Positions 1 to 56,700 of a stretch of 64,000 nt of DNA are shown here, one piece after another. The first letter of the stretch is position 1, and every line of letters begins with the position of its first letter. The notes beneath the pieces are model-generated. The model was not told where the DNA came from and did no database searches. It saw nothing but the letters and a program-made list of their open reading frames with translations. Source of the DNA: Callorhinchus milii. Lineage: Eukaryota. Made by a program: the position numbers and the translations under genes. The stretch covers positions 9,610,001 through 9,674,000 of the forward strand of contig NW_024704752.1 in NCBI RefSeq assembly GCF_018977255.1, read 5' to 3'.

Positions 1-375
1 TTTGAATAGTGTTGTGCAATCTTTAATAGCCACAGACAGACATGACCTTGGTTTAACGTCTTACTTGAAGGAGCACATACCTAAGAAAACAATGCTCCCC
101 AGTGACACTTGATACTGAATTCAAGTGTCAGCCTAGACTGAGCTCAGTCTCAACGTGGAGCTCAAATCTACAATCTTCTGAATCAGGGGTGTCAGTCAAC
201 TGAATAACACTGACACTTGATCTAACCAAGAACCTTCCTTATGGATCAGTGCCAATTACTCATTAAATGACCAATTCTTATACTCAACATACACAGAAAA
301 ATCACCAAATTGGCGGAGAAGTTTGGCAGAGTGACATGATTCCTGATCTCATGGCAGTGGATCTGGTGATGTTAC

Positions 376-3300
376 CTGGGCAGAGAGGTTCTTTAGGCGT
401 TCTACATCATTGGACTTTGTGATTTTTAAAAAGTTAAGTTCCAATTGTTTGGCATCGGTGTCCTTATCATACTTCTCCATCCAGTGCTCCAAGTTTTCCT
501 CCATTTCCTGTTTGGGAAAGAGCGAAGCACAGTCAGGGAAGGGCTTGGAGCAACACTGAACCTCATAATTGAAAGTTGTATTAAGATATGGATATTTCCA
601 AGGTATTTTAAATATTTTGCTCATTGTCTCCCTCTTTATGCACCTAAGGAATGTTTGCTTTTGATATCCAAAAACAAACATTTCTTGCACTTACTGTCTG
701 GTGCTGTTTCAGGAAATTCTCAATCTCCAAATGTACCCGAATCTCTTGATCAGTTTTGTTTTTCAGGCACTGGAGAGAAAAGACAACATTATTAATCCAG
801 AAGATTTGTTTTTTCACCCAAATGAAGTAGTGTTTGAATGTTTGGCCTGTACTGTAAATGGTACATAGTGCACTTCTGTAATGATACCTTGGTGAGAACT
901 CGTACTGTCGTGCCCATCTTATTGGTCCTGCAGATCCCTCCCACCCAAACTGAGACACCAGAGCCTAGCTATCCTGTACATCTTCTGGAACACTGGAATA
1001 CATGCACGGCTAGCTCAGAATCTAGATTGATTCTCTGAACAGATTGAACTGTTTAAAACTGTTTTCCCATCGCCTCGCGAGCAAGAGGGCCCAGGTTCAA
1101 TTCCCAGGCGGGATGAGTGGGCAAGTTTCCTTACTCCATATGCCTCTGTTTATCTAGCAGTAAGTAGGAACCCGGTTGGTAGTCGATTATCGGGTCGCTT
1201 TCCAGAGGTAATAATTGCTTCAAAAAAATAATAACTTGGTCACTCAATCCACGACTGTTTGTGGGACACTGTTGTACTCAATTGGCTGCCACATTTCACC
1301 CACAAAATATAGTCAATTTACTTTACAATATATTCTCCAAATGTACCCGAATCTCTTAATCAGTTTTGTTTTCTGGGAGCTGGAGAGAAAGGGAAACATT
1401 ATTAATCCAGTAGATATGATTTTTCATCCAGTTTGAAACATCTTGACTAGATAATAAGGCACTACATCATGTGAAAGGATTCTTATTATCATTTCTTCTC
1501 CTGACCTCAAACTCGTCCTGCAGCTCTTGTTCATTCTGTGCACATTTCTTCTGTGTTTGGAGGACCTGAAGTTCTGCATTTTTCTTCATGTATTTCCTTT
1601 CCATGTTGGTTTTTGCTTTCATCTCTTGTAGTTGGTCTTTTAGATGTGCAATAATCTCATCTTTGCGCTAATCAGAGACAGAAAATACAAGCGCTGACAG
1701 TTGAACCTATTTCAGGATGTATACTGCCCTGCCCAGCAGCTATCTGGATTTGCATCAGCTTTAACAATGAGGCTTTACATTTGATCCCTGGAATCTGATG
1801 GCAATTTATTTTGTACCTTTTCCCTTGGAAACTAGATTCAAATTGTCTGAACTTTTAGCTGCTCTGTGCTCTCTGTAATTAAAACAAGACAAACTCTGTA
1901 TTATTGTAGACTGCAAGGTGAGGTATCTCACAGTCAGATTCCATGATGTTTAATTCATTTAAAACAACAATGATTATTCATTTGATTTTTTTCCCCCTCC
2001 AAATTTTTGTTCCACCCAACTTGTTCTGCGGCACCTTTACATGTTCCTCACTCATTCTACCTATGAGAGTTTTAATCAGAAATGATACTCAACCATGGAG
2101 GGCATCAAACCCAACCCGATCCTGTCCTTACCCAATCTCCACATTGCATGCAGCAGGGGATAAAAACTGTTAGTAGCATTTCTAGTCAAATGCTAAACCA
2201 ACATCAGATAATTCAACACAGATTAGGAACTGTTTTTGTTTTGGACGGATCTATAGATAACGGAAAGCAACCTTTGGATTTTTTAAAAATACGGTAAAAT
2301 TTCTGATCTGATGTCTCAGTAGAGGATTACGTGAGAAGTATGTGCAAGACAAAGAGTGAATCACTAACAGTGAAACATTTCCAAACCTGCAACTCAGACT
2401 CTTTCTCTTGTCTCATATCTTGCAGGTGTCTTTGCAGAACTGCGATTTTCTTCCTCCCTTCCTCCTCCCTGTGAAACGCAAAGATGCACACGTTAGTGGA
2501 TGGCCAGTTAGGTGGTGAGGGAGTTAAGCTGGTAGCAGTTACCTGATAATAGTGTTCTGGTTGTCAGCTTTCTTCTCATTCTCAAACCGGACAGCATTGA
2601 TGAGAGTCAGGAATGTTCCAGAAGTTGTAATCTCATGCAAAGTGTCAGCAATCACATCCATTGCAACCTGCCTGTTATTATAAGAAAACAACCCTTGTTA
2701 GACATGCTGAGTTGCAGAGAAGCAGTTCACCCAACATAGCCCTCACCTTCAACAACCATTTCCAGAATTGATGCTGAGGCCAATTGTAGACATCAACTGC
2801 TGACATCAGCTAATACATTACCTAAAACAAAAACAGAGACCTGGGAAAACTCAGTAGGTCAGGCAGCATCTATGGAGAAAGGAAAGTGAGTCAACGTTTC
2901 GGTTCCATGACCCTTCGTCAGAACCCAAAAGTTGACTCACTTTCCTTTCTCCATTGATGCTGCCTGACCTGAGTTTTCCCAGCTCTGTTTTTGTTTCAGA
3001 TTCCAGCATCTGAAGTATTTTGTGTTTAATACAGTACCTGTACAGTTTACTGTGAATTAAGCCTGATCTGCTAAGATGGTCATGCGAACTGCTTGACAAA
3101 GGTCTGAGTGCAGATTTGATCTGACAAACAACTGAGAGCAAAAGATCGGTGCCAAGCAAGTGTCAGTGCTGAGAGCAATATGCCAGTGACAAGTGCAGTA
3201 TGTCAGTGCAGAGTGCTGTTTATCATTGCTTACGGTTTATGTATGTCAGTGCCAAGCACTCTGTGCCAGCCTGAAAACAATACTGTATGCATGTACTAAG

Positions 3301-5486
3301 TGCTGTTTGTCAGAGCTGAGCACAATATCTGAACAGTGTTTCACCTGTCAGCTTGCACTTTTATTAGATTATCAGGGGTCACAGGGCTGTTCTGGAAGGA
3401 GTTACTAAAGAGCCAATTGCTTCTCTTTATGTCCCTGGAGGTTTCTTGCAGTTGATCTCCCAGCTCTACCAGTCGCGCTGCATTCAACATTCCAGACATC
3501 CTCTCAATGTTCTTCGAAAGCATGATCTCCTCATACTTGTACTCCAAACTTTTTTGACTGAAGACTATCTGGTCAATTTCACTCCCTACAATCTGGAAAT
3601 TGGAATAAGACATGAGTGAGTGTCAGCAGGATATTTTGTGGTGGGGTATCACAGTTGTTCCCAATCTTGTCCTCCCCAGCCAGACAGGCAATCACATTTT
3701 CCAGCAGAAGTTTCATGACAATCATCAAGAGTGAGAAAATCCTGATGTTTCTCTCAATAGTTCCATGGAATGGAATGCAATCCTATTAACTACATTATTG
3801 CTGTACTGAGAAGCATAGTTTCCAGTTGAGGATTTCTAAATACTGGTAAAAGAATGGCACATTCTTAGAATGGTTCGATATCCTTAGAATGGTTAAGCTC
3901 TGTTCCATCTAATGTTCTCAGATCACACAGAACTAGAATGTAGGTTATATACGGAATGAAACTGACTAGTTTACTAACTCATAGAATCGAAAACTAATTT
4001 TACTCACATTCTCCATGTCTGATTTCTCTTCATAGGACACAGGCATGATGTATCCCAAGATGGCTAGCTGATCCAAGCATTCCTTCAGCACAGTGGAGAC
4101 CTGCAGAATGGTTGTCCTGGAGAGTGGCTCCATCTCTCTTGTTTTTCTAATTAAATGACACAGGCAAATCATATTGTGTGAGTAAGACTCAAAGTGTTAA
4201 CAGTGCAGCCATTTCAAGTGGAGTTGATCTACACGCTCGGTAAGTATCTGCTCAGCACTGTCTAACCAATGAAGTTGGGCATTTACTCCAAGACACTTCT
4301 ATTCGAAATTGGCTGCTATATTCACCATCAAAATACACAATCACTACACTTTACTATACCAAATGCAAGGACTATTATTATTATTTTATAGTAATTCTTG
4401 TGAAATGCTTTGAGACATCCTCTCAATGTGAAAGGTACAATATCAAATGCAGATAATATGATTCATAATACATCCCCCCCCCCCCCCCCCCCCCCGTAAC
4501 AGTGTTCTGGGAACAGGTACTTATTGCACATTTATTTTCTGAAGCAGTTGATAAGCACAGCACAATTTCTACGTTCTGCAATGTGAAAGCTATTGGGGTT
4601 ATTGCTGAAAATCAAAAAGCTCTCACCTGGGGGATCCCTGGTCCTCATTGGGGAAGCCTTGATCTTCAGTGGGTGAGCCTGGTTGCCCAGTGGGTGAGAC
4701 CTGGAGCTTAGTGAGTGAGCCTGGTTGCCCAGTGGGTGAGACCTGGAGCTTAGTGAGTGAGCCTGGTTGCCCAGTAGGTGAATCCTGGAGCTTAGTGAGT
4801 GAGCCTGGTTGCCCAGTGGGTGAGACCTGGAGCTTAGTGAGTGAGCCTGGTTGCCCAGTGGGTGAGACCTGGAGCTTAGTGAGTGAGCCTGGTTGCCCAG
4901 TGGGTGAGACCTGGAGCTTAGTGAGTGAGCCTGGTTGCCCAGTGGGTGAGACCTGGAGCTTAGTGAGTGAGCCTGGTTGCCCAGTGGGTGAGACCTGGAG
5001 CTTAGTGAGTGAGCCTGGTTGCCCAGTGGGTGAGACCTGGAGCTTAGTGAGTGAGCCTGGTTGCCCAGTGGGTGAGACCTGGAGCTTAGTGAGTGAGCCT
5101 GGTTGCCCAGTGGGTGAGACCTGGAGCTTAGTGAGTGAGCCTGGTTGCCCAGTGGGTGAGACCTGGAGCTTAGTGAGTGAGCCTGGTTGCCCAGTGGGTG
5201 AGATCTGGAGCTTAGTGAGTGAGCCTGGTTGCCCAGTGGGTGAGATCTGGAGCTTAGTGAGTGAGCCTGGTTGCCCAGTGGGTGAGCCCTGGAGCTCAGT
5301 GGGTGAGCCCTGGAGCTCAGTGGGTGAGCCCTGGAGCTCAGTGGGTGAGCCCTGGAGCTCAGTGGGTGAGACCTGTTCCTTGTTGGGGGGCAGCGCTGAC
5401 CCATTGCTCTGATCCTGACTGAGGGATATTCCAACCCCTGATTCAAGGCTCTGCTTCTGCCCAAGAGGAGGTGACGGCTCAGACAT
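376..5486 (-). CDS. IQCG: IQ motif containing G / dynein regulatory complex protein 9 (DRC9), 3'-incomplete; exons 5486-4627, 4146-4008, 3592-3345, 2671-2543, 2468-2387, 1667-1506, 769-695, 507-376
   Basis: All eight exons have GT-AG boundaries and join in frame. Peptides [46 protein letters not shown] and [20 protein letters not shown] match recalled human IQCG segments ([55 protein letters not shown]). Also adjacent to RPL35A, as in human. The terminal IQ-motif exon lies left of the window. The start ATG at 5486 is inferred. Confidence 0.93.
1064..1490 (+). mobile_element. Older tRNA-derived Deu-type SINE interrupted at 1334-1430 by a copy of an IQCG exon
   Basis: B-box GGTTCAATTCCC, then GGGCAAGTTTCCTTACTCC and GACTGTTTGTGGGACAC body as in the full copies. 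The tail (TTTGAAACATC...AAGGCACTACATC...GGATTCTTATTAT) resumes at about 1432. Confidence 0.8.
2824..3026. mobile_element. Palindromic non-autonomous repeat, probably Penelope-derived, with hammerhead-like core on the minus strand
   Basis: About 65-bp inverted arms (AAACAAAAACAGAG..CTGGGAAAACTCAG..GGTCAGGCAGCATC.ATGGAGAAAGGAAAGTGAGTCAAC versus its reverse complement) flank CTGACGAAGGGTCATGGAACCGAAACGTT (2921-2893). A half copy lies at 30810-30912. Confidence 0.7.
4669..5375. repeat. Coding minisatellite in IQCG: 14 x 42 bp ([14 protein letters not shown]) plus 4 x 21 bp (SPTELQG)
   Basis: Unit GTGGGTGAGACCTGGAGCTTAGTGAGTGAGCCTGGTTGCCCA starts at 4690 and repeats every 42 nt to 5277. Unit GTGGGTGAGCCCTGGAGCTCA starts at 5278, 5299, 5320 and 5341. 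Confidence 0.97.
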
Positions 5487-5564
5487 GAGGCTCAGATCCT
5501 CTCTCTGGAGGCTGCTGTTGTGGCAGACACTGTTTACACGTTGGCATAGCAACGCCTGGTGACT

Positions 5565-5565
<1 letters not shown>

Positions 5566-5596
<31 letters not shown>
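5566..5596. repeat. (CA)n microsatellite at the acceptor of the IQCG first coding exon
   Basis: Run of about 15 CA units. On the minus strand it reads (TG)n-TCAG immediately before position 5562. Confidence 0.9.
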
Positions 5597-5682: not shown

Positions 5683-6037
5683 CTCAGCAGCTCAGCGTTT
5701 GAAGACATTATAAGTTAAGAGTTTTCCGCCGCAACGGATTTTATTTCGCCCTCAGTTTACGCGCTTCGGGAGGGGGGGGGTCCTGCGCTGGTACCGTTTG
5801 TCCGTTGCTTTCGCCTGAACATTTTAATCGCCGTTTTCTTTCCGCGTGTGTTTCTCTTTCTTTCAAATCGAGTTAAAGTTCCCAATTCATTCGATTCTTT
5901 AAATCAATGAAGTGGCGGCGCGAGGTTGGTCGGGTCCGTCCCTCCGATTCGGGCTCCGGACAGGACCTCTCCGCGGGCACCTCGCGTCCCAGCGGGCCTT
6001 GCGACGCCCTCTTCGTCCATCTTGGATTCGGCTCCAG
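5683..6037. promoter_or_regulatory. CpG-rich bidirectional promoter region IQCG/RPL35A, including RPL35A non-coding exon 1 with 5'TOP motif
   Basis: CCCTCTTC pyrimidine start at about 6007-6014, then YY1-like CCATCTTGG and donor CAG|GTGAGA at 6037/6038. A minus-strand donor AG|GTACG at 5683/5682 suggests an IQCG non-coding exon 1. CpG density is high over about 5590-6620. Confidence 0.75.
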
Positions 6038-6291
6038 GTGAGAGGCGGCGAGTGGCGCCGATTAAATCCGCCAAATGGTGTGAAACGTGGCGGTGGCGGA
6101 CCGTCGTTGTGACCTGAACGGCAGCTCGGAAGTGCGGGGACCCGAGATATGTCCTCCCGGGGCCCGTGCGAGTGCGGATGCTTGTGATATCGAACGGATT
6201 GTGCTGCCCGGCCCTGAATGTCGTGTCTCCCCCATTTCTCTTTCCAGGTTCAGCCGCTGCTGGAGACACCTCTCCGCCTCGCACCGTCGCG

Positions 6292-9200
6292 ATGCCTGGA
6301 AGGTAAGGACCCGGAGCAGAGAGAATGGTTCCCTGGAGTTTTTTTTAAAAAAAATTACGGGAAGGGGGATGGGGGGGGGAGGGGGGTACGTGTTGGCTTC
6401 GCAGGGGTTTGAAGTTTGTTGGCCCGGTTTCAGCCTCTGAGACAGGTTTCGGATAGAAGGCCACAGAGTACCGGTGGATCAGAGCCGCGTCTGGTCGTCG
6501 AGCGAAGTTGTGAAGGTGTGATGATCCCATGTTCAAACGGGTTTGAGAGTCCCGTGTGTTTAGGCGCCAGGTATTTCCGACGGCCAAACGTTTCAGGCTT
6601 GATCCGGTGCCCATCTGGCTATTGAATCTGGCTTCAGCATGGGGTGGATCACAGCCCCTTCTCACCCAATGGCTACAAATAAGACATGACAGGGACATGA
6701 GCAATCAGGTGTAACTGTTGCCGGCCAGGCTGATCTAACTGCAGATACTAATAAAGTTCAATGTGTTGGCTTCGGCCATCCTTACCAGTTGCAATAACCA
6801 TTTTATGAAGAAATGCAGTTAAAACTTGCTTAAGTCTTTATAAATCGTATAATTGCCGAAGTCGTCCATTCACCCAAGTCCCATTCAGCTTCCTATCAAA
6901 GCAACTTAGATTTTGATGCACTTCTCATATTAATATTTATAATGCGGCTCCCCTATTTCTCCATTACTCCCGTCCTTACTCTCTGTATTAAATTGCAGGA
7001 AATGATATCCTGGACCGTCAACGTTGGCCCATTTACTGGTCGGTTGCATTTAATCGCGGGAAACTTATCTTGATCCACTGACGCATGAGCAGAACTTAAT
7101 TTCCTGCGATTCTAATGCTTGTCAGTAAGTGCCATGTGGTGGCGGTTCAAGACTCATTGAGTCGCGGGAAATGTAGGTTTGACTGCATGCGCACTTACCG
7201 ACTGCATTACCAGCTCAGTGTAGATCATTGATGAAATCTGATTTTCTGCAACTTTATAGTTTGCCTCCAAATCAGACTTTGCGAAAGTTGCATCAACAGC
7301 TTGCACTTATATGTGAGTTTTCCTATACTTTGTGCTGCCTTGGTGTGTCTGAAAGTATTGTTCCCGGTTTACTTTCTCTACAGCTACTGTTTGCATTTAT
7401 ATAGTAACTTTCATGTAGGGTAACTTGTTGAAGCACTGTACAGACAGTGTCAGACACCAAACCTTCGGCATCTTACAGACCTTCAAAATTCTGTCTGAGA
7501 TTTCACAATCATGACCTGTGTCATACTCAACTTGGGTGCAGGATTACATTTATATGCTATTGAGCATCTTAAATCAGTTCTCATAGATCATTACTCTTAA
7601 CCCTGCCTCTATGTCTTGCTACCTTAAGTTGCGACAACGAGACCTACTGCATGTACAGCCTGACTAGAGCATTGGATAGTTTGAGTGTGACTTTTAAAGA
7701 TCTAAACTGAGCTGGTATTGTTGTCCAGCATTTTGTTTGCTGCCTCATGCTGAACGTTTTGTGGACCAGTTGACTATCAACGCTACTTTCAATTTCCCTT
7801 TGTCAAGTTCTATCTCATTCATCTACCTCAAATGCTTACTATCAATGTGTGGTTTCTTGCAGTTATCTGTATTCAACTTACATTTGTCAGTATTCTGAGC
7901 CCTGTCATGGTTTCTTAGTAAGATCTTGGCTTTCTTCTCAGTTCCCACAGTCCTGTTCTCTTTCCATTCTAACACGTATCTTAGTATAACTGCTTCTCAT
8001 TGAATCTATGATTCCAAGTAATTTGTACTGGGAATGGAGGGTACCTTACTCTTTGCCGTTTTCATCTTTGTATTGCTTTTCATTGTATACCTACAAATAA
8101 TTTTTTATACAATTCTGCTGATGTAAATGACTGACGTTGTATAAGTAGTGTTGCTGTACAGTGATTCAGTAATTTGTGACAAGCCAAATACACTTACTAG
8201 TTGTTTGCAGGTTAAGTTTCAGCTCAGCAGATAAGTGCTCTGCTGTCGTTCCCCCTGCAGAGATTGAATTGTTTCATACTATCCCTGACTGCTTTCCTCC
8301 TCCAGCTGGCAGGGACGCTTGGGAACGAACAGTGTTTTAATGCGTTCACCTATAATAGCTACCGATTTGAGATGTCACCCAAAAATATCTGTGATGAACT
8401 AAAAACAGCTCCATATCTGTATGTCACATATGCAGGTTTACCTACAAATAAGCAATACATTTTACATTNAAAAAACTTCTTTGAGATGTTTCACTGAAGT
8501 GATAAGGCACTATGTCACAGACCCCTGCCTGACCCCCAAAAAGGCACTATATCAAATGCAAGGATTAGTAAACCCCACCTTGCCAGACAGACTCTACCTT
8601 ACCAGACAGACTCCAGGTATACAAAATTCAACCTAACCAGAACCAGGCCCGAAAGCAAAAGTATTTTTTAAACATTTCCATGGGCGCGCACGTAGATTCC
8701 TGCTGACCCAACTCTACGCACGTGCACCAACTGCTAACCCACGTGAGTAACTGCTAACTCTGCTGTCGTTCCCCCTGCAGAGAGTGAATCCATTATGTTA
8801 GAAATCCATATGCATTGGTAAAAAGATGCCTTTTTATGTATCTGTTAGTAAGGATGCGTCTAGGGTTAATTGTAGATTATCTTCCTCCCGCAGACTATGG
8901 TCCAAAGCTGTGTTCAGCGGCTATAAGCGTGGCCTCCGCAACCAGAGGGAACACACTGCACTCCTGAAGATTGAGGGGGTGTACTCTCGCAATGAAACCG
9001 ACTTCTACCTGGGCAAGAGGTGTGCTTATGTCTACAAAGCAAAGAAGTGAGTATTTTATCCCAATGCTGTGTTCTCTTTATAGAGATGGAATGTCTTAAA
9101 TTGTAATGTTTGTAGAATTAGTCTGTGCATCACTGTATTGGGAAAGGAGATAATCATGCTTGCATAAGTGTACCAAAATGTCTAGGGTGAGTTTATCCAC

Positions 9201-12200
9201 CCATGGCTCCGTTCGACTGCAGGTGTGACTATCATGTCAGACAATTGACATGGTCATATCTATGATGTAACACGTCCACCTTTTAGGTTTTCATTGATCA
9301 GAAAATCATATTTGAAAAGCTGAAAATCTAGAAACAATTTTTTGCCAGGTAGTATTGTGTAATACTATCAGTAATATCTGCTGATGTAAATGGCTGACTT
9401 GCTTTATATAACAACTTGATTTATATAGCGTCCTGGAGTGCTTTGTACTGTAAGTTCTGTTGCTGTATGTACAGTGATGCAATAGTTTGTGACGAGCAGA
9501 ATACATTTACTAGTCGTTTGCAGGTTAAGTTACAGCTTAGCAGATAAGTGCTCTGTTGTCGTTCCCCCTGCAGAAATTGAATTGTTTCATACTATCCCTG
9601 ACTGCTTTCCTCCTCCAGCTGGCAGGGACGCTTGGGAACGAACAATGCTTCCAGCAGCCTTTTCTGTGATCTAACTTTAAGACAGCCACAACTCCCTTCT
9701 TTTGAGAATATAATCAATAACAGGATAACTAGCAGTTAACTTAATTGAAGGATTTGAGCTGTCTTATATTTAGTATTGTTTCCATTTTCAAAGTAACACC
9801 GTCACCCCTGGTGGTAAACCAAACAAGACTCGTGTCATCTGGGGAAAGGTAACACGTGCTCATGGCAACAGCGGAATGGTCCGCGCCAAGTTCAGCAGCA
9901 ACCTACCCGCAAAGGCCATAGGACACAGAATCCGTGTGGTAAGTGGATTTCAAAGCTTTTCTGTGACAAAAACATTCAAAGGGGGATATTCGCCCTTTTC
10001 TCTTTGGGCTAGATTTGGAGGAGGTGCCGTTCTTCCAATTTTCAGTTAGGTGTGTTAATTTATGATGAAGTAAGAGCACCGGTTACTCATTGGAACATCT
10101 CTTAAGCAGCTATTTGCTTGCAATGCTATCAAAGAATGTCTTTGAAATGTCTCAAAGTGCTTCACAGAATATACATTAAAGTGAATTGACTGTAAATTTT
10201 GTGGGTGAAAAGCGGCAGCCAATTGTGCACAACAGTGTCCCACAAACAGTTATGGACTGAGTGACCAAATTATTTATTTTGAAAGGATTATTACCCTTGC
10301 CTTGTAGACAGTAGCTGTACTACTGTTAAGTCCTCGAGGAAGTCTATTGAGCTGGGTGCCGATGAAATCGGGTAAACTGGTTTGGAAGAAGTTACTTGAG
10401 TAAAGAATTGCATTGAAATCCTGCTGGTTGTCAGGTGTGCAGTTTATTATAAGTGTTGAGATGAGGGCTGCTGTTGAGGATTCTAGATAAAGAATGGCAG
10501 GTTAAGTTACAGCTGAGCTGTTTAGTGCTGTGCTGTCGTTCCCCCTGCAGATATTGAGTTGTTTCATACTATCCCTGACTGCTTTCTTCATCCAGCTGGC
10601 AGGGACGCTTGGGCACATACATGATTGCATGCTGAGGGAGTCTTTTCTTTCCAAGGGTTTGTTTGAGATGAAATATTTTATAGATGTTTTGCTTGTCAAA
10701 ACAACTATAATCCAGTGTCACTCCTTTAGGCTGTGTGATTTCATCTGTGAGGTTGAAATTGCGGTGAGCAGGTTGTCTCTAATCTTCAACTGTCAATATT
10801 TATATTGGCATTTGAGTTGAAACAGTTGAGGTCCAATTGATCACTGGGCACAAGAATGCTGCTCCGAAACTGCCCCTGGTAGAGGCCAGGCATGGTTTGT
10901 TTTGGCATTTCTGGGTTATGCATTATTCAGGTAGGGTATGTAGTGAGATTGGAATTTTAGGTAATCCATTGAGTAACATCCAAGTAATCTTTATGCCACT
11001 CATCATTTCAGGATATTGTTCACCTGGCTTGTGTTTGCACACTGGCCTGGAAATGAGCTCTAGTGTTGCAGGCAAATATAGTTCCCCTGATGTTAGAACT
11101 GGCTCTGTTGATTTGAGACTGAATTGCAATTTTTAGTGAAAATATGGAAATGGATAAACTGCAAACCTGAAACAGAAGCTGGAATTGTTCATTGTGTCAA
11201 TCAGTTTTAGGAAACTGATCAGTGTCAATCCTATGCTCACTCTATAGCCAAGGGGCAGGCAGATCTATAGTACTGCTGATGACAGACCAGCCACCCTGGC
11301 TCATTGGCAGCACTTGGAGGGACAGGGCAATGGTTCTTCCCACTTGGCTCCTGTCTACTCTGCAAGCCAAAGCACCAGTGGGTAGTATGGTCCTAGCTGG
11401 ACAAGCAGTGGGAAGCTTCCCAATCAATGCTTTCAGTGGGAAGCTGTATGGTTTTAGATGGTTAACTCGAGCATTACCGCAAGAGATACTGAGGGATCTG
11501 CAAGCAAAATTTATTGCTTGCAGATCAAATTCATGCCATCTGGCGTCTAATAGTTTCTGGAATTAGGTGAGCAGTATGCCTTGGGGATAGCGTTCCATTC
11601 AAGGGAATGTCCATGTGTTAGGTGGCATGTGTAGTAGTCTTATCTGGTTTGGATACTCTCAAGCACAGTGATTGGTTTCAGTGCCCGTTAGACACCTGAC
11701 TGACCCCCAAAAAATCTGATGAAGCATTGCATCCAAAGAATGTTAACCTCTCTCCAAAGCTGTATATTATAATAATAATTTTTGCATTTGATATAGTGCT
11801 TTTCATGTCTTCTCGTTGTCTCAAAGTTCTTCACAGAATATACTGTAAAGTGTATATTTTGGGGTGAAAATTTGCTGGTTCTTTCTAGTATCTTCTGTTT
11901 TTATTTTGAGGAAAATGAACTTCCTGTATTAGTTTATCTTTTCCCCATCCTGATTGTTGACTTTTATACTTCAAAATCAAGCTTCTTTCCAACTTGTTTT
12001 ATTAGACCTCGTTTTTAACAAAAAGCAGCTGAGTGGGGAAAATAGGAGGCTTTGACGAGTAGGTCAAACTGCTCCTGGAGTTGAGTCATTCAGTAGAACA
12101 AAAGCCCAGGGAGACTGTTCACAGATGGTTGAAACAAATTAGCTTGCTGGTGATTGATGCTCGATGGATTAAGAGTCCAGTGGTTTGACAAATAAATCTT

Positions 12201-12335
12201 CCAATTCTGAGTTTAGCAACTGCTTAAATCAAATAGTTTTTTTTCTGTCTGGGCAATGCTAAAAGCTTTTAAATCCCTGTTTAAAATGATCCCTTTTTTC
12301 TTCTATTCCAGATGCTGTATCCTTCAAGGATTTGA
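6292..12335 (+). CDS. RPL35A: 60S ribosomal protein L35a (eL33); coding exons 6292-6302, 8894-9046, 9794-9938, 12312-12335
   Basis: Spliced product [33 protein letters not shown]...[38 protein letters not shown]...GHRIRV-MLYPSRI* is typical RPL35A. Splice sites are canonical; AATAAA at 12359 and 12370. Confidence 0.98.
8205..8334 (+). ncRNA. SNORA63: H/ACA snoRNA SNORA63 (E3), copy 1, RPL35A intron 2
   Basis: Two hairpins (GCAGG...CCTGC; TCCCTG...CAGGGA) and ACA 3 nt from the end. Contains E3 signature strings TGTCGTTCCCCCTGC, TTGTTTC..ACTAT.CCTG and CAGGGACGCTTGG as recalled from human SNORA63. The 3' pocket CUAU/ACGCUUGG is complementary to 28S CCAAGCGU-UC-AUAG. Confidence 0.88.
9518..9647 (+). 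ncRNA. SNORA63: H/ACA snoRNA SNORA63 (E3), copy 2, RPL35A intron 3
   Basis: Near-identical to copy 1, with the same hairpins and guide pockets; ACA at 9642-9644. Confidence 0.88.
10495..10624 (+). ncRNA. SNORA63: H/ACA snoRNA SNORA63 (E3), copy 3, RPL35A intron 4
   Basis: Same structure. The 3' end GACGCTTGGGCACATACATGA is closest to the recalled human ending (GACGCUUGGUCUCAUACAUGU); ACA at 10619-10621. Confidence 0.9.
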
Positions 12336-13786: not shown

Positions 13787-14241
13787 AATAATCCTTGCTT
13801 TTGATTTCTTCAAGACATCTCAAAGCACTTAATAGAATACACTGTAAAGTGAATTAACTATTTGGGTGAAATGTGGCAGCCAATTGCGCACAGCAGTGTC
13901 CCACAAACAGCTGTGGATTGAAGTGACCAATTTATTATTTTTTTTCTTGAGAAATGATCAGGCGTGTGGAGTAATAATAATAAAATAATAATCCTTGCAT
14001 TTGATACAGCGGTTTTCACAGTCTTCTAGTTGTCCCAAAGCGCTTCACAGAATATTGTAAAGTGAATTGACTGTAAATTTGAGGGCCAAACATGGCAGCC
14101 AATTGCGCACAGCAGTGTCCTACAAACACAGTCGTGGATTGAGTAAGGAAACTTGCCCACGGTTTCGTCCTGCTGCGAATCAAACCCAGGTATCTCGCTT
14201 GTGAGGTGGGTGAGTGCTCTAACCACTAAGCTACACGACTC
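13787..14241 (-). mobile_element. Two tandem tRNA-derived SINE copies (truncated 13787-13975; internally deleted 13975-14241)
   Basis: Both show the reverse-complement tail AATAATCCTTGC and core GGCAGCCAATTGCGCACAGCAGTGTCC. The second keeps the tRNA-like head (GCTCTAACCACT.AGCTAC). Confidence 0.85.
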
Positions 14242-15384: not shown

Positions 15385-18300
15385 ATGGAGGACCGCGAGC
15401 AGCGACTCCCGGAGCGGCCACTGCCGACCGCGATCAGGGGGCAGCGGGGAGAGAGCCGACTCCCGGAGCGGCCACAGCGGGACCCGGGGCAGCGGGGAGA
15501 GAGCCGACTCCCGGAGCGGCCACAGCGGGACCCGGGGCAGCGGGGAGAGAGCCGACTCCCGGAGCGGCCACAGCGGGACCCGGGGCAGCGGGGAGAGAGC
15601 CGACTCCCGGAGCGGCCACAGCGGGACCCGGAGCAGCGGCAGCGGATTCAGGCGAAGCAGCAGCAGCAGCAGCGCCCGCGCCAGGGAGAGATCAGGGGGC
15701 ACCCGCCGGAGCAACGCGGGCAGACCCGAGGGCAGGAGTTGCTCGGAGCGCCGACGCAGCGGCCGGAGGGGAATCGCGGAGCGATCCGGGGACGAGGGGA
15801 GCAGCCGCTGGCACCGCCGGACCGGGAGCAACCGGAGCGGACGGACCGCGAGTTCGAGCAGCTGGTGCAGGCGATCGGCGGGCGGGAGCGGATCCTCCTG
15901 GTCGGGGAGCTGTGCGAGAGTCGGCAGCTCATGTTCCAGTTCGTCAAGGCGTTGTTTCCCAGACCGGAGGAGGCGGACAAGGAGCCCGAGCCTCGGCGGC
16001 TGCTGTCGCCGTGCCCGAGGGTCACCGAGCTGGTGAACGGCAGCCGGGAGCAGCGGCGCCTCCGAGCCCGTCTCCTGCTCTTCCTCTTCCGACAGGAGTT
16101 CCTGTGCAGCCGGAGAAACGAGCCGCTGATCCGGGAGCTGCTGCGGGACGTGCGCCAACGGTGCTGCTCCTGGGAGCCGCTACCGGGGCTCGTCGGGGTG
16201 GTTCACACCGAGTCCGACACACAGGGGGAAGATCTCAGCGCCGCGGTCCGGTTCATAGAGCACCAACTGCGGACCGTCTTTCACAGACACCCCAGCGACT
16301 GCGTCCAGGCGCTGCCCTTCGTCGCTGACCGGGTGGATTCGGTCAGGGAGCTGAAAAAAAGCAGCTGCGACGTGCTCCGAGCCTCGTCGGGGATCACATC
16401 AGGTGCGGTGCCTCGGTACCGGGTCGCACACACCCCGGTGCTGTTCTGTGGCAGAGGGCCACACGGTTGTTTTTAAGTCTTACCCATTCGATTCGTGTCT
16501 GGGCTGAAAGAGAGGGGGATGGGGGTGGGGGGTGGGTGGGGGGGTTGGGGGTGGGGGGTGGGGGTACTGGGGGGGGATCGGACACCATCCCGTGACCGGT
16601 GGCTCACGTTAGGGTACGAGGTGTGTTTGCGTGGATGTTGAGTCCTGTGGCTCAGTGGTTAGAGCACTCGCTTTGCAAGTGAGAGACCTGAGTTCAATCC
16701 CAGGCAGAGGGTGAAACCTTGGGCAAGTTTCCTTACTCCACACAGAGCCTAATAATAATCCTCCAAAACCAAAAACAATAATAAAAAAATTGGTCAGTTT
16801 CAATCCACGACTGTTTGCGGGACATTGCTGTGCGCAATTGGCTGCCGCGTTCGCCCACAAATGTACAGTCAATTCACTTTACAGTGTGTTCTGCGAAGCG
16901 CTTTGGGACATCCTCCCGACGTGAAAAGCGCTATATCAAATGCAAGGATTATTATTATTATTATTATGTTGATGGCGGTGCCTGACCCACGCGGTTGAAC
17001 ATCCTGCAACAGCTACTGTATCCATGACCGCGATACTGTACCGATAACAGCAGAAAGTGACCAAAATTTGAGTGTGTGGGGGAGGAGGAGGAGGAGTGGG
17101 GGTCGTGGGGGGGGGATATGCAACACAGATTATTCGGACCCTCTGGTAGAAGAAAGTTTTATTTTCTGAAAGCAGACAAGGGGTTTGGGACAACCCCAGA
17201 GTGACCCCCCACCCCCCCCCCCCTCATCTGTATTGATGAGTTCGATCCTCTCACATCAGTGTCACAGATTTATTTTGGGGGATACCCGAGTCAACCAGGA
17301 ATAAGAGGATTGATCCACAACTGGTGTGAGAATGATGTATTCCTCGTGGGAGTCCTTTCAGTTCTGAGGTGCCTACACCTGTATAGGGTTAAGCAAAAGG
17401 AAGAACAGTTGTGGGCAGAGAACCTTCTGTTCGGAACACATGTTAATCAATTCATCCTTGAGTTGCGCTGGAAGTGGTCCACATTGGACCGCTGTGTCCA
17501 TGGACCCCCCCACCCCGACAGCTCACCCACACCCCCATTTCAAGTGGTCCTTCTTTGCACATTGATCCCGACAGCTCAGCAGAGCCAGATCTGGCCAACA
17601 CATTTGAGCGTTTTGCTTCCAGCTCTATATGGCCACGTCTTGCATTGACCATTGCCTTCAGTAATTAAGCCCCCAAGGGGGTGGGGGGGATCCTGTAATA
17701 TTTAATCAGTAAAGGATTTAGGGAGACTTTAAACCGAAATGATCTGCTTACATTTCACAGTGTGTCAATGTATGCACGAGTGAACAGTTGTGGCGCTGAG
17801 CGAATAATGTCTTCATTCTATTGTAAAAACATTCAAACCGAGAAACTTGTTTAACCGAGAAGGCGCTAGAATTTGTTTTCAGTAACGGAAAAGGAGATGA
17901 AATCTTCTGATCCGAGCGGAGCTTCTTGTCTGGGAATGTTTGGTGGCAGTGCGACGTGTCAATTTACACTTCATAAAAACTGCTGAATGGAACCTTTCAT
18001 CGTCCTTGTTTCTGGCATCTCCTGGGTTTCCTCCATCAGCTGATCTGTGAGTGGAACAGTGACTGGAGGCAATTACAGTGAGCATGTTCCTTTGCTCTCC
18101 AGCCCAGAAAGCTGTTCAGCACCACTCCAGTTTAAATGTGCAACGAATAACTATTTATAATAATTGCGCGGTAACCACATTCAGTCAGTCGCCTCTGGGT
18201 CAGAAGGTCGTGGGTTCAAGCCCCAAATACGACTTTAAGCACACAGTCTAAACTGAGACTCCCAGGCAGCACTGCCAGAGTGCGGTCCTTCAGTAGAGAT

Positions 18301-25232: not shown

Positions 25233-38788
<13,556 letters not shown>

Positions 38789-47706: not shown

Positions 47707-50700
47707 TTATACATAGCTCACGGCCTCTTCCGCTTTCTCCATTTCATTCTCAGCAAGCAGCAATGTGTCTAACATTACTGATGATGTGGTTTGGATAGGA
47801 GCAGACCTCAGCCGCAGAGGACTTGGATACATTGGGTTCAGCCCATTGTGTCTCATGAAGAACCTGGAATTCTCATTCATGGAAGTTCGAAATGAGATTC
47901 GACTGGAGCATTTTCTAAGCATTTTCACCGGTTTATTTCTTGCATAGTTGCATGTAATGTAATGCTGGAAAGCCTGGCGGAAGGTCTTATTGAAAAGAGT
48001 GTAGACAAGAGGATTAACCCCTGAGGAGACATAACCTACCCAGACAAAGATTTCCATCAGGGTTCCGATGAGTTCTGGGTCACAGCTCTTGCAGAGCACA
48101 GAAGTGACGTTTGTTACAAAAAAGGGGCACCACATCACCAAAAACAGGAGGAATACAATTCCTAGAACTTTGGATGCTCGCTGCTCATTGCTGATGCTCT
48201 GCATAGACTTTTTACCCAAGGTGGAGAGTCTTCTGATAGGCATGTCGTCAGTGGAGAGGGAAAGTGTCCTGTCCTTGTGGGAGCCATTTAGCATTGCCAC
48301 CTTCTCTGGCGACGTGTTGGATTGAAAGACCGTTGAGACAGTGGCCCAGTTGAAGTGTTGGGGTGGCTTTGCTTTAATCAGATAGGCTTTCTTCCTCAGC
48401 ACTTGAATTGTCAGGAAGTAAATAACGATCATGATAGCAAGGGGAATGAAAAATGCAGCCATTGATCCATAGATGATGAAATCTTTGAATTTATCAATTT
48501 TGAGGATGCAGGACTTGTTCATGAAGGTGTTTGTTTTATCTTGCAGACCTTTGATGGGAATTGAAACAGCAATGCCTGAATAAGACAATTATTTGGAATA
48601 TGTTAATTGTTTATAAGCTGTTTTAAACGATTATTGATGCTGATCATGTAAGCAATACATTTGCTACGTAACACTTCTAAACTGGAGGTTATCAGTCTGT
48701 TAATTAAAAAATAAAAAATCAGTCACTCAATCCACGACTGTTTGTGGGACACTGCTGTACACAATTGGCTGCCATGTTTCGCCCACAAAATATAGTCAAT
48801 TAACTTTACAGTATATTCTGTGAAGCACGTTGAGACTCTTGAAGACGTGATAAGGTGCTATATCAAATGAAGGATTATTATTATTACAAATTAGGTGGGA
48901 GTTTGCCTGTATGGTACCTGAATAAAACCTCTTTGAGTGTAAACTGTGTGCAGTCAGTAACTGAGAGCTAAAAGGAACTAAAAAAGGTTCCAGGCTAAAT
49001 GTGTTGCATTTAGACCACATTTATGAAATTATATTTGGAAAGTCTCTCAATCACTGAAAACTTCTTCACCCTCCACCACAACCCCCCCCCATGATTTGCC
49101 CACTTCTAAACGCTCTCTGTGAGTCTGATGATTTGCATGCCTGGTATTGGTTTAATGATTTTCTTTCAAAAATCTAAATAATGTATTGCTATGGTATATA
49201 TTGTATTTGTTTTAGGATTGTTGTCGTGCGCATATAAGTTTGGGCTCTGTTGCTGAGATACACATTCAGAGGCATGAATCCAGTACTTGCCAATTGAGAT
49301 GAGCCACACCACAGTGATCTTAATGAGAACCTTGGCCCTAGAGTTGAAGCGACTGTGATGAATAGGCTTTTTAATAGCAATGTAACGGTCCAGCGAGATT
49401 GCACACAGGTGCATGATGGAGGCTGTGGATAGAAGGATATCCAGGAAGATCCAGATAGGGCACAGCTCAGAGGGTAAAACCCATTCGGAATCTGAAAGGC
49501 AGATTAATTGGTTAATACGCATGGTGATGTTAGTGAAGATTACAATAATACTCTTTGCAATACAATGATTACAATAATACCATAACATTTGCTTTTCGTT
49601 CAGTTTGAGCTGTTTTTCTCTTGCCATTGCTTCTAAGGCACTATTCTGTTGTCAAAATGAGATCATCCCAGTTGCTAAATACTAAATTCTCATTGTGTTT
49701 CCATGTGGTATAAAATTTATATCCTGTATAACTTATTTCCTGTTTTAAACTGTTTCAAACTGCGTTTAGAATTGACCTTTGCTTGGTTCTGCCAATCGAT
49801 AGTAATCAGTGAGCACTAGCCGGTGTATTCTCTCTTTCCTTGGCAACGCTCCATTTGTAAGGTTATCAAACAAATACACTGTAGTCCTGTCATGGGAAAT
49901 TGACTGATTGATGAGTGTGTTTTTAAAATGCTTCCTTAACCTTCCACTGACTAAAGTAGATTAAGAAGTCAGCTCTACTGCAGCAATAAACACTATGGCA
50001 GATGGAGATTTGCTATGTAATATAAGCCAGATGTTTTCCTTTAAATTTTAACCCACTGAGCCACATGGTCAAAATTATCACAAACTTACTTCCTCAGACG
50101 AACAAAAATGTTGCAAATAGGGCTTTCAAGAGGTGTGTGCAGAGTTGACTTTGAGACAGTGGAGATGAGGAAATATAGCAAAAATGAAGCTGATCAATAA
50201 AGTGCTCAACTCCCAATACAATCATTTGAGCAATGGTTAATTCCACAGGCAGAGATCAAAATTAAATTTCAACACCAGATTAGTGATTTTACCATGTCCA
50301 ATTTACAGTTAGTTCTGGTCGGTGCTCAAGCTAAATGAGACATGCACTGTTTTCTGAAGCATGACCCTGTCTTTAATATGCTACAAGTTAGTGAAATGCA
50401 GCCCTTATTCAGATATTGATATTCTTTGGCTACTTTATAAGAAGCTCTGGGAATACAATACAAAATTACATTTGTATAGAGCCTTTCGCATCGGGAGGAC
50501 ATCCCAAGGCGATTATCTATCAGAGTGGAAGCTGGACTGTTTTACTTCCTTGCTATGCTCATCTGAAATCCAGTTGAAATTTTGCCGAGTAGTGTGCCTT
50601 GAATCCAGAACAAAAATGTAAGCAAGACTTTTATTTCAAGTTTCAAATTAAACTTGAAACAGTTAATGTGTGTGTAAATAAATGTTGGGAATAAACTTCC

Positions 50701-53700
50701 AGTGTTGCTGGTCATTCATGGATTGAAAGAGTCACATTTATTGCTTGAAAAAATATAATTCAAGCTTTGCAGCTGCAATTAGGTTAGTCGTTTTTTTCTA
50801 TTATTTTCCAAATATTTTAAAAAGGATTTGTCTATTTAAAATAGAATAATTTGTATCACTGCTGACCCAAACCCCAGTCATTCAGTGGAATTAAACACAG
50901 GCTTTGGGTGTCTTTTTAAAATAAATTAACAGTGAAATCAAATTTGAAACCCTTATTGCTTGAATATTTGATTCCCTCAGTAATCAATCATTGTAGTTGC
51001 CCTGGTCATTTTAAGTAGTTGAAGTCTTGAGTTCTGTAATTTAGTGGTTCATCTGGTAATTTACTTTATTTTATAGATCGTATGGGGGTCATTGTTGGGT
51101 TATCTGTGATGTCCACATATCCCAAGTGACTTTCAAGCTGGTCCTAACCAATAGTATGGATGCACATTAAATATACATATATATAAAATTACAATCATAC
51201 AGAATAATATCAACTGCTGAATAAGGAAATAATCCTCATCAGTAATGATTCATGTATGTTAATCCGAAGTGGAATAAGATGGATATTCTTCTTTCGCTCT
51301 GTGTGTTGCTTATGCAGGAGTAGTAAAATCTTTGTTTTTGTATAACTGGTATTCTGGTTTCTGGGTGGGTTACTACCACCAGGAAAGATGTTTGTTTTGC
51401 CAATTTAGTTGTAGACTCACTCTTTCCACCCTGTTGGAAATTGTCTGAGGGATTGTAAAAGACCTTAAACTCCACTTTCATGACATTCATGAAGTTAGAA
51501 GTATTAATCTTTGTAACAGAGTTCCAAAACAAATAGAGGCAGAATTTGTTAGTTGTTTTATGGAAGCATATGCTGCCATTGTCTCATACAGTGAGTTGTA
51601 AAGATGGTGCTGAATATTAGTTATATCAGCACTTAGGGAGTGAGATGTTTGAACAGCAAGATAGTTTGTACTGCACTAGAATGTGTTAAATTCTGGTTAA
51701 GGAAATAAAATGACAGTTGTTTAAATCAAAGTGCTTGAATTACTTCTGAGGTGAGAGATTTTAATTATGGTATGTTTCCATTGGGTACTATATGATTTCT
51801 TTTTTAAAAAAAGACTACAATGTGCACATTGCAAGTACATTTCTGATCTTTACTAAACCCATTTGACCTGGGTTTCTCTGCTAAAGGAACATTGTGGTTT
51901 TATTTTATGAAATGTGCAGGCTTTATTAAGCCAAAGGAGTTGAAGATCAACATTTGGCTTCAGCTATTTATAAAATTGACGGAGCGTTTTTGGTTTGTAT
52001 GAATAGGTTCCCTTTCCTGATTGGGTTTGAAAGAAATTCGGGACAGTAATAATTTGTGAACACTAACTTATTTTAAAGATACAAGCACTTGCATTTATTA
52101 TTAACTTGTTCCTTTATACATGTTTATGTCTCTGTGGGTTGACTGGCTCTGCAAATTTTCAGCTTGTGCAATGCGATGCTGAAGAACAACTAATCTTACA
52201 AATATATGGTTAGAACAATGACTTGAAATACTTTACAAAAACAATTCCAGACATGGAGGGGGAAAGTGATCATAATGACTGATGAGGAAGTAGGTTTTCA
52301 GGTAGTTTTCAGCATGGAAGGAGTTCTAGAAGGTAGGATCATAATAACTGAAGATTTGACAATCATCTGGCGGAGGGATTGGGCAGGAGTTTGGCAAACG
52401 AAGGGGACAAACAGTAGAATGAACCTCGAGAAGATCACAAAAATAGGGAGATGCAAGGGTATGAAGGAATTTGTACATGGGGATGAGCATCTTGAAGTCT
52501 CCTGTACAATAACGTATGTAATTTTGTAAACTTGTTTTACATAGTAAAACAATTCTTACTATCTCATGTGTAAGTACACTTGATATTTTAAAAACAAAAT
52601 TAGAAAATGCACTATTTTTGAAGCCTTCTACTACTCCCTTTTCTTAAAATGTTAAAGAAATCAACAACTGATTTCACATGAATTACAGCATCCAGTATGC
52701 CACCCATTATCATCCCATTATCAAGCCCTTGAAGTCCTGTAGCTCAATGGTTAGAGCACTCGCTTTGCAAGCGAGAGACCTGAGTTCAATTCCAGGCAGA
52801 GGGCGAAACCTTGGGCAAGTTTCCTTGCTCCACACAGAGCCTAATAATAATCCCTCCAAAAACCAAAAACAATAATAAATTGGTCATTTTCATTCTACGA
52901 CTGTTTGTGGGACATTGCTGTGCGCAATTGGCTGCCGCGTTCGCCCACAAATATACAGTTAATTCACTTTACAGTGTGTTCTGTGAAGCGCTTTGGGACG
53001 TCCTCCCGACGTGAAAAGCGCTATATCAAATGCAAGGATTATTATTATTATTGAACAGTCTGAACTGAATGTTAACATTTGCTTGTGTGACATATTCACT
53101 CCATTCAGCCTGTGATTACATGTAATTTCCATATCATTTGGCGTGTTACAAATATAACTAATGACTATTCATATTGTGTTCTTTTGAAAGATTTCTAGAA
53201 ATATGTTGGCTCACGGTAAGCAAAAATGTATCTTGAGTTTATTCCAAAAAAGCCTTACATTTGATGCAGTGTTGCATTCATTATTCTTAGGAACGTATCA
53301 AGTATCCACTGAAATCTGTACTCCCGAATTAACTATTAACTATATTGGTGACACTGTCAGCAATGTGTTCAGACGAGGGATGATATAACCAATGGTTTCT
53401 GCTAGCAACAGGGAATTGCTGGACGTGAGCTATGATGGGCAAGAGTGGTGTCTTTTTTGAGTCCTAATAATAATCCTTACGCGCTTCACAGAATATACTG
53501 TAAAGTGAATTGACTGTATATTTTGTGTATGAAACACGGCAGCCAATTGCGCAAAGCAGTGTCCCACAAGCAGTCGTGGAATGAGTGACCAAATTATTAT
53601 TTATAATTTTTTAAATATTGTTTAAAGGAATTATTACCCCTGGAAAGCGATCTGCCAATCAACTAACAACTGAGTTCCTAATTAACTAAATAATTTCTAA

Positions 53701-56700
53701 TTAGCAGGAAACAGAAATACAGATTGGTGGACTGCTACATAGACTGGCTGAAGAGAGTATTTTGATTTACTGGTCTCATAATCATTTTCGTTTTGAGTTT
53801 TGTATCACCAAACATGCCTCTGTTTTAATGTGCTGCTATAGACCATGCAGCAACCTGCTTGTGGGATGGGGGCCATTGTGAGGTGGATATAGTGGAAGCC
53901 CAAACCGTGGTACTTCCCGCTTAGGCTGCGCTCTTTCTGACTCCGAAGGCACGCTAAATATGCCATGAAATGAATACCGCATCATTCAGGACGGTTGGTA
54001 CAAGGGAAATGGACATTTTGAAACCAGTAGAGAATTTCCCACATAGCACTAAAGACTGATGAGAGCAAAGACCAGGGTAGCACACCATTCCAACTGTGTG
54101 TTTTCTTGTACTGGGTGTTTATGAAGGGCTAGGTATTTGTTTTGAAGGTATTATGAGCTGCTTCCTAGAAATAAAGTGTTTTTATGACTGTTTGAAGCAA
54201 TGCTACCTGGGTGGTAGCTTGTTTTCAAGGTAATGTGAATCCATGTTCGCTCAGTTTTATTGAATAACAATTTTTTTCAGTTCTGTGTCCAACTGTTAGC
54301 TTTAAGGTAAATTATTAGAGCAAAGTAAAGGGAAGGGTTAGTGTTCAAATGGCATTAAATGATGTGGGATGGGGCTACTCCTGTTTTTTAAGGTTGGGTC
54401 ATTAAACAGTTCTTTGAGATGGAGAAAAGTGTTCAAGGCCACTGCAGTAAAAAGCTAGATTTATTCACATTACTCAATCCAAATGTGTGGGAATGCTGAT
54501 AAACAAACTAGTGGTTCCAAGACTTGCCCTGCTTGAAGGGCACTACATAAATACTAGTTGTTGTTTTAAAGTAAATGTTGTTAATCAGTTTTAGCTTCGT
54601 AAGTCGTAACCTGAATGACAAGTTCTGTCATTATATGTTCTACATTATTACTGGTTTTCAGTACTGGGGGATGCAAATCTGTTCATATTTACCAGTGTTG
54701 TCTATGGCTAGCCTATGGTGACCCTTCTCATTGAAGTTGAATGAGTTGATAGCACTCCTGCCTCTGAATAGGAAAGTTTTAAGTTCAAGCCCTACATTGG
54801 CCTTTGAACCCAGTCTAGGCTGACACTCCAATCCAGTGGGGTGTATTTTGTATGTATTGTCAAATGTGCTGTCCTTTGGATGAAATGTTAAACCACGGTT
54901 CTGTCTCCTTGCTCAAATGGATTGTAAAGATCCCATGGCACTACTTAACAAGAAAAAAGAGTTTCTCCTGATGTTCTGGCCAAGAATCCTCCACATAAAA
55001 TTGGCTATTCACCTTATGAGACATTGCTTGTATGCAAATTGCAAACACCTATAAATTACGATCACTACAGTTTATAGTAAATCCTGTGAACTGCTTTGAG
55101 ACATCCTCCCAGCATGATCAGTGCCATATCCAATACAAGAATTATTATTATTAATTTTACTTGAACTTGAAGCCCTCATGTCACAAGCACCATACGGAGC
55201 GGACCAAATGCTCAGATATTGCCTGCACCCTTCAAGCTAATTAGTAACCTGAATGACAACTTTCTTGCTTTTCAAAGTGACTTTCCTGTGTATTTGAAAT
55301 GTTCATTAGGGTTGGACACAGTTGCTAAGAATAGATGGTTAAAGGCTACTTGCTCATCAGGGCTTGCTCTCATTAAACCAGAGGCTGATTAACTATTAGC
55401 TTTATGTTTGTTTCTAATAAGTCACACTGGCTACGCAGATTCTGTTCTGAGTGCTGGAACGCTGTCTCCTTTGTGATACCCTACACCTAGTTATGCATGT
55501 GTGATAACAGCAACTTTATTTCCAAATTTTCCAACAATGAGACTTATTTCATACTTCTTTCTTTTGCCTCCCTACTGAGCTCTGCCTCCTCTCACTTCAC
55601 TTCTCCATCCCAACCAGTAATTTCAAGGGTCAGAGGTTGAGTTTTGATGTGGTATAGACCTAGATGAATCTGCTGTGCAGAGAAATTACTTGCTGTAATG
55701 CGATGTCACTTTGAGTTTAGTGCCTTTAACCGAGATGCTGTCCTTAGTGTCTTACCCTGAAACTCAGGCTGACCTTAGGGATGCTAGAGATGATGCAAGT
55801 TATGTGGCTGTGGGCAGATCTTGAGGATATCTTAATGAATGTAAGAACAACTTAAAAGGTCATTTGTTATAAAAAGTTTATAAGAATTGGTTTTACAGAT
55901 TTAACACTATGTTGGATTCTTCTGTAAGTTGTCCTTTCAGAATCGATGGGTTTTATAATTTGAGTACCAATTAATTTTGACGACTAATTCAAGCTTGCTT
56001 CAACACCAGTTGTCAGCCACTTTGCCCTTGGTTTCTGGAATTCTCTCTCCAAATTCCTCCAAGACCAGAGTCCCACTCCGTCTCTGTGTACTTACCTCTG
56101 TAATGCAGCTTAATGATAATAATAATCCTTGCATTTGATATAGACCTTATCACTTCTTAGAGACATCTCATAGCACTTCACAGAATATATTGTAAAGTGG
56201 AATGAAAGTATGTTGTGGGCGAAACATTTTCAGACATTCCTATCTGAAGACCATCAGGTAAGTACAGTTTGATCATCCACAAGATTTCTATCAAATATGT
56301 TTCTATGGACTGAGCTCAATTTGCTCCTGCCAGTCACTGAAGATTTTTTTTATTTTCGTTTGGACATGAATTTATTTCTGTATTAGCTTCGTAGCAGTTT
56401 TTAAAATGTGGGCATTCAGCCTCCTTTCTCTCTCTTGCTTTGCCTCTCTTATTTGTAAGTGCAAAATTCCTGATTCTGGAACAGATGTGTGACAGTCCAA
56501 TACCTGAACAAGATTAATTGGTTAACTATTTCTGATTAGGCATTGTGGATATTTTCTACCTGAGAGAACAGCATTTTCTATTTGTTAATAATAATAATAA
56601 TCCTTGCATTTGATACAGCGCTTTTCACGTCTTCTAGACGTCTCAAAGCGCTTCACAAAATATACTGTAAAGTGAATTCACTGTATATTTGTGGGTGAAA

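Follow-up and report, generated by a model that had tools for sequence, protein, structure and literature searches.

Three SNORA63 genes in the introns of elephant shark RPL35A

We analyzed 64,000 nucleotides (nt) of the elephant shark Callorhinchus milii (RefSeq assembly GCF_018977255.1, contig NW_024704752.1, positions 9,610,001 to 9,674,000 of the forward strand). This stretch is called the window here, and all positions are counted from its first letter. We found that the ribosomal protein gene RPL35A contains three genes for the H/ACA small nucleolar RNA (snoRNA) SNORA63, one in each of three spliced introns. They are likely released as H/ACA guides, predicted to act on U4390 and U4491 of 28S ribosomal RNA (rRNA). 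All three copies lie on the sense strand of the host:

8205..8334 (+), SNORA63 copy 1, RPL35A intron 2, with the 3' splice site 559 nt downstream; H-like box AGAUUG at 8261, ACA at 8329
9518..9647 (+), SNORA63 copy 2, RPL35A intron 3, with the 3' splice site 146 nt downstream; H-like box AAAUUG at 9574, ACA at 9642
10495..10624 (+), SNORA63 copy 3, RPL35A intron 4, with the 3' splice site 1687 nt downstream; H-like box AUAUUG at 10551, ACA at 10619

The whole window was scanned against Rfam at gathering thresholds, and nine matches were found: three full-length SNORA63 (RF00092) and six tRNA-like. The cut-off of RF00092 is 90 bits, and all three copies reached it over the full model length (1-130 of 130), with 90.8 bits at 8205-8332 (E 1.2e-13), 97.4 bits at 9518-9645 (E 5e-15) and 102.4 bits at 10495-10622 (E 4.5e-16). 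Copy 3 is the closest of the three to the family model. Between copies 1 and 2, 125 of 130 positions agree, and copy 3 is identical to either of them at 113/130. Since the copies pass the Rfam cut-off, automatic annotation of these loci is probable. The Rfam search gave no additional snoRNA within RPL35A up to E = 10. SNORA19 matches over the SNORA63 copies were rejected, with scores of 20-29 bits against a cut-off of 80.

An initial annotation, made from the letters without database searches, had proposed three 130-nt units of the SNORA63/E3 family and suggested running the SNORA63 model on the window as a check. The three matches, each above the 90-bit cut-off and of full length, bear out the family call, and the unit ends at 8334, 9647 and 10624 correspond to the ACA box plus 3 nt. 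The same annotation named RPL35A as the host, which agrees with the gene described below.

The host gene and its splicing

The RPL35A gene consists of five exons, of which four are coding:

6008..6037 (+), exon 1, likely non-coding; TCT-like pyrimidine initiator, start inferred; GT at 6038
6248..6302 (+), exon 2; ATG at 6292; joint to exon 3
8894..9046 (+), exon 3; Pfam PF01247, E 7.4e-21; best PDB matches eL33/L35a; joints
9794..9938 (+), exon 4; Pfam PF01247, E 5.2e-19; joints
12312..12335 (+), exon 5, coding part to the stop; joint in run X4

The four coding exons encode an intact protein of 110 amino acids. With its Ribosomal_L35Ae domain (exons 3 and 4), its intact frame and its head-to-head arrangement with IQCG/DRC9, the gene was identified as the RPL35A (eL33) orthologue. 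The initiator at 6008 is one of seven YCTYTYY matches in 5700-6260.

Host splicing was read from assembled contigs of 4 of 14 public runs (X1, X3, X4, X11), whose RNA origin was guessed. We found GT..AG joints for intron 6303-8893 (2591 nt; runs X3 and X4), intron 9047-9793 (747 nt; runs X1, X3 and X4) and intron 9939-12311 (2373 nt; run X4). None of these three joints occurred in the contigs of run X11. Intron 1 (6038-6247) was seen as GT..AG in the sequence, with no joint among those shown. The placement in introns 2, 3 and 4 given by the initial annotation holds in that each copy has its own spliced intron; the numbering leans on intron 1. Among the variants shown in the run contigs, none fell inside a SNORA63 copy, but so few are to be expected there that this carries no weight.

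An unspliced contig of run X3, guessed to be RNA, covers copy 3 and the 5' part of intron 4 (10261-10940), and a spliced contig of the same run ends at exon 4. Retention of intron 4 is possible, but contigs cannot show retention. Upstream of RPL35A, on the other strand, IQCG/DRC9 exons were found head-to-head with it at 352-690 (-), 3344-3613 (-) and 4623-5591 (-). The open frame of the last one contains a long array of 14-residue repeats with no Pfam match, and may represent an IQCG 5' exon. Human RPL35A likewise adjoins IQCG head-to-head.

Boxes, fold and guide pockets

RNA folding predicted a hairpin-hinge-hairpin-tail structure with two internal pockets for all three copies. In copy 1, one basal pair of the 5' upper stem has been lost. 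The ACA box starts at 8329, 9642 and 10619, which is 3 nt before the predicted 3' end and 14 nt below the pocket. A relaxed H box, ANANNR, is present in all three copies, 14-15 nt below the 5' pocket. Its sixth letter is G in the elephant shark copies and A in the consensus line of Rfam RF00092. Since ANANNR was taken as box H in a plant study (PMC2685112), the ANANNG form is plausible. An ANANNA at unit position 72 was also considered as the H box, and was rejected as it falls within the 3' guide pocket.

Both guide pockets are intact, as the initial annotation stated, and have identical sequences across the three copies. The 28S letters used as targets are human, from the supplement of PMC6984369, and Xenopus is identical at the paired positions. 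We found that the 3' pocket forms 8+4 Watson-Crick pairs with the flanks of U4390 (human numbering), at 14 nt to the ACA, in 3/3 copies. The 5' pocket forms 7+4 pairs, including one G-U, with the flanks of U4491, at 14 nt to the H-like box, again in 3/3 copies. For the chicken counterpart of this 5' pocket pairing, 4+7 nt are given in PMC2653536. U4390 was the target first proposed, and it fits the 3' pocket; that proposal was incomplete, since the 5' pocket also fits U4491, and PMC6984369 assigns both positions to SNORA63. According to the same paper, SNORA10, the other U4491 guide, is not reported from fish except Latimeria.

Probable duplication within the host gene

Two of the copies share upstream intron DNA, and a fragment of a fourth copy was found in intron 2:

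8114..8204 (+), upstream intron flank of copy 1, co-duplicated with its counterpart at copy 2
9377..9517 (+), upstream intron flank of copy 2, homologous to that of copy 1
8758..8789 (+), remnant of a fourth SNORA63 copy, intron 2; 32 nt, 31/32 identical to copy 1 (blastn E 3e-8)

The segments 8142-8337 and 9451-9650 are 90% identical over 200 nt by blastn. The proximal flanks of copies 1 and 2 align with 53 matches, 10 mismatches and 4 gap columns, and a more distant block (8114-8134 and 9377-9397) is identical at 20 of 21 positions. This shared intron DNA points to an origin of copies 1 and 2 by DNA-level duplication within RPL35A. Within-gene duplication at the DNA level is the main source of snoRNA paralogs described for chicken (PMC2653536). 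No flank of copy 3 could be aligned to the other copies by blastn. The 32-nt remnant spans the 3' strand of the 5' hairpin and the start of the hinge, and gave no Rfam match at E up to 10.

The 21-nt block also carries a C/D-like motif (TGATG...CTGA), flanked, as seen by eye, by a short inverted repeat at 8105-8141. As a snoRNA signal upstream of copies 1 and 2 the motif was rejected: it is at chance level, with 14 occurrences in the window versus 10.2 +/- 3.1 in shuffles.

The observed pattern suggests the following history. A single SNORA63 would have arrived in RPL35A and been copied, by duplication of the DNA, into neighbouring introns. Copy 3 would have parted first from the common precursor of copies 1 and 2. 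Copies 1 and 2 would stem from a later duplication that included the flank, and a partial duplication, later still, may have left the 32-nt remnant.

SNORA63 hosts in other vertebrates

The human table in the supplement of PMC13736004 lists SNORA63 in 12 rows. EIF4A2 and SNHG33 each account for two of them, OSCP1 and an unnamed long non-coding RNA for one each, and the other six are intergenic. RPL35A is absent from this host table, in agreement with the initial annotation, which knew of no snoRNA in human RPL35A. The chicken counterpart lies in EIF4A2 intron 8 (PMC2653536). In Xenopus, two SNORA63 copies adjoin SNORA81 and SNORD2, and the equivalent human cluster is in EIF4A2; this synteny suggests that the Xenopus host is probably EIF4A2 as well. 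Zebrafish has four SNORA63 rows in the supplement of PMC11880993, two of them in rplp0 introns (chr5:1955269 and 1956128), one on chromosome 21 whose host labels conflict and one on chromosome 4. RPL35A (rpl35a) is absent from the Xenopus and zebrafish supplements searched and from the main text of the chicken paper. RPL35A is therefore at least the third translation-related host of SNORA63, beside EIF4A2 and rplp0.

These hosts bear on the two scenarios offered by the initial annotation, namely a switch between two genes on human 3q, or an ancestral host lost in mammals. The choice between the two is weakened by the chicken, Xenopus and zebrafish hosts, and neither is favoured. Since SNORA63 is in EIF4A2 in chicken and in a matching cluster in Xenopus, any loss from RPL35A predates mammals. 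As zebrafish has a third host, we dropped the argument from 3q linkage.

Compared with human SNORA63 (E3) and SNORA63B in EIF4A2, the elephant shark genes share the Rfam family, the U4390 and U4491 pockets, the intronic position in a gene of the translation machinery and the presence of more than one copy per host; they differ in their host, RPL35A, and in having three copies and a remnant. The zebrafish rplp0 pair is similar in that there, too, SNORA63 is duplicated within the introns of a gene for a large-subunit ribosomal protein, and that gene is not the tetrapod host. The ribosomal protein gene is a different one, however, and the two zebrafish copies lie beside other snoRNA-sized entries, whereas the elephant shark has three copies. 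A triple arrangement in one ribosomal protein gene is also described for the chicken U18 counterpart in RPL4 introns 2, 5 and 6 (PMC2653536), although family and host differ.

Such changes fit what is reported for snoRNAs in general. Exact host conservation is uncommon, and SNORA3A, another family with other hosts, likewise moves among ribosomal protein genes, within the ribosome and translation class (PMC13736004). Xenopus has more snoRNA copies than human, and snoRNAs are described as moving between introns and between genes (PMC6984369). The relocation of snoRNAs has been termed constrained drift (PMC3511168). No SNORA63 or RPL35A entry was found in the supplements of PMC3511168 or in the text of PMC3412847. 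We found no report of an RPL35A-hosted SNORA63 in the literature searched, which covers few subscription journals.

Proposed function and alternative explanations

H/ACA snoRNAs assemble with the dyskerin complex on the pre-mRNA, and are released by splicing, debranching and trimming. By extension from this biology, dyskerin and its partners NOP10, NHP2 and GAR1 would assemble on the SNORA63 sequences within the RPL35A pre-mRNA. The spliced-out lariat would then be debranched and trimmed to the 130-nt RNA. The mature RNAs would direct pseudouridylation at the 28S equivalents of human U4390 (3' pocket) and U4491 (5' pocket). The family membership of the copies, their intron position, the splicing of the host introns, the identical guides and the 14-nt spacing to both boxes are observed. 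RPL35A, EIF4A2 and RPLP0 are likely interchangeable, broadly expressed hosts.

Several points weigh against this reading. The strict H box ANANNA is absent from the hinge of all three copies, with ANANNG at the expected position, and box conservation is described as a top predictor of human snoRNA expression (PMC10234308). Because the strict H box was not found, we classed the copies as RF00092 by threshold and kept a functional H/ACA guide as likely. Copy 1 exceeds the RF00092 cut-off by just 0.8 bits. Folding energies gave z = -1.42, -2.00 and +0.89 against shuffles for copies 1, 2 and 3, which is not clearly beyond the shuffles; copy 3 folds no better than they do, and has a weak lower 3' stem. 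For copies 1 and 2, the fold of lowest energy has the hinge paired to the ACA tail and lies 3.3-3.4 kcal/mol lower than the open H/ACA form. The pairing between the pockets and 28S was scored on human letters, not on those of the elephant shark. Finally, the copies are known from DNA and from assembled contigs, which are unable to show RNA ends, and the mature 130-nt RNA is predicted.

The main rival explanation is that not all SNORA63 copies are expressed: one or two alone would yield a stable snoRNA, and the rest would be young silent duplicates. We consider this possible, though on the unlikely side. The remnant at 8758-8789 shows the decay that such duplicates would undergo. Copies 1 and 2, which have the lower scores and the alternative pairing of hinge and tail, would be candidates, copy 1 also for its missing 5' upper-stem pair. 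In human, five of the 12 SNORA63 rows are flagged as not expressed (PMC13736004). Against silent duplicates, copies 1 and 2 are better conserved than their shared flank (125/130 versus 53/63; Fisher P 0.007), although gene conversion could also explain their high identity. Also, the 18 variable positions among the three copies include none (0/18) of the 31 guide or box positions (hypergeometric P 0.005), two of which, the H-box adenines, were chosen after the alignment was seen. An origin of the triplication as an assembly artefact or as retroposed pseudogenes appears highly improbable. In favour of an artefact, the identity of copies 1 and 2 reaches 96%, and one N is present in the window, in intron 2. 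However, contigs join each copy to its own unique flank, which makes an assembly artefact unlikely: run X11 covers 7334-8331, run X1 covers 9017-9823 with no differences, and runs X1, X3 and X11 extend over copy 3. These run contigs may not be independent of the genome assembly. Retroposition is opposed by the arrangement of the copies on the sense strand, one per intron, with no poly(A) after any of the three, and by the upstream intron DNA shared by copies 1 and 2, which is not expected of a retrocopy of a mature RNA.

A further explanation concerns the origin of the arrangement. RPL35A may have been the ancestral SNORA63 host of jawed vertebrates, with SNORA63 moving later into EIF4A2 (tetrapod line) and rplp0 (zebrafish line). 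Cartilaginous fishes split off before tetrapods and teleosts diverged, and the two bony-vertebrate lines differ in host. The older copy pair differs at 17/130 positions and has no alignable flank; therefore the residence of SNORA63 in RPL35A is not very recent. We nevertheless regard an ancestral RPL35A host as unlikely: three lineages with three hosts, one of them known from a single species, give no polarity, and RPL35A appears as a host in none of the human, Xenopus and zebrafish supplements or the chicken main text. In a stronger form, which seems quite improbable, cartilaginous fishes would have kept this ancestral host, EIF4A2 and rplp0 would have been reached by independent hops, and the copies with ANANNG would be the only U4491 guides, given that SNORA10 is not reported from any fish but Latimeria (PMC6984369).

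Other features of the window and searches outside the locus

Interspersed repeat fragments were found in introns 2 and 4 of RPL35A (8540-8570, 10139-10280, 11765-11870), and recur across the window. The tRNA-like matches at 14165, 16648, 38438, 52737, 56832 and 58113 adjoin this repeat, which is likely a tRNA-derived short interspersed element. A repeat-rich frame at 15385-16476 (+) has a weak DUF4630 match below the cut-off. We also identified PSMD1 exons at about 28750-37560 (+) and HTR2B exons at 47707-59157 (-), the latter likely nested in PSMD1. One HTR2B exon matches a Callorhinchus milii protein at 100% identity, with the next match at 83%. In human, PSMD1 and HTR2B are on 2q37 and RPL35A is on 3q29; the linkage in the elephant shark therefore differs from human.

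Outside the window, a SNORA63 motif scan of metagenome contigs returned 36 loci. All were rejected as chance, because 0/36 match the snoRNA (blastn) or RPL35A (tblastn). A stricter SNORA63 pattern gave no matches in viral genome contigs and none in prokaryote genome contigs.

Significance

Taken together, these data describe a known guide RNA, triplicated by well-known processes in a host not found in print for SNORA63. The RPL35A case reveals no new mechanism, and host switching and multi-copy hosting are already well documented. It contributes one case from the earliest-branching jawed vertebrates to a known pattern, in which the guide and its rRNA targets are fixed and the host changes within the ribosome and translation class. 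The copies, the shared flank and the remnant record duplication steps within one gene, and SNORA63, with EIF4A2, rplp0 and RPL35A, provides a three-host example for dating host switches. If the stronger form of the ancestral-host reading were true, the family would trace a dated path through three hosts and allow a natural test of how much variation the H box tolerates.

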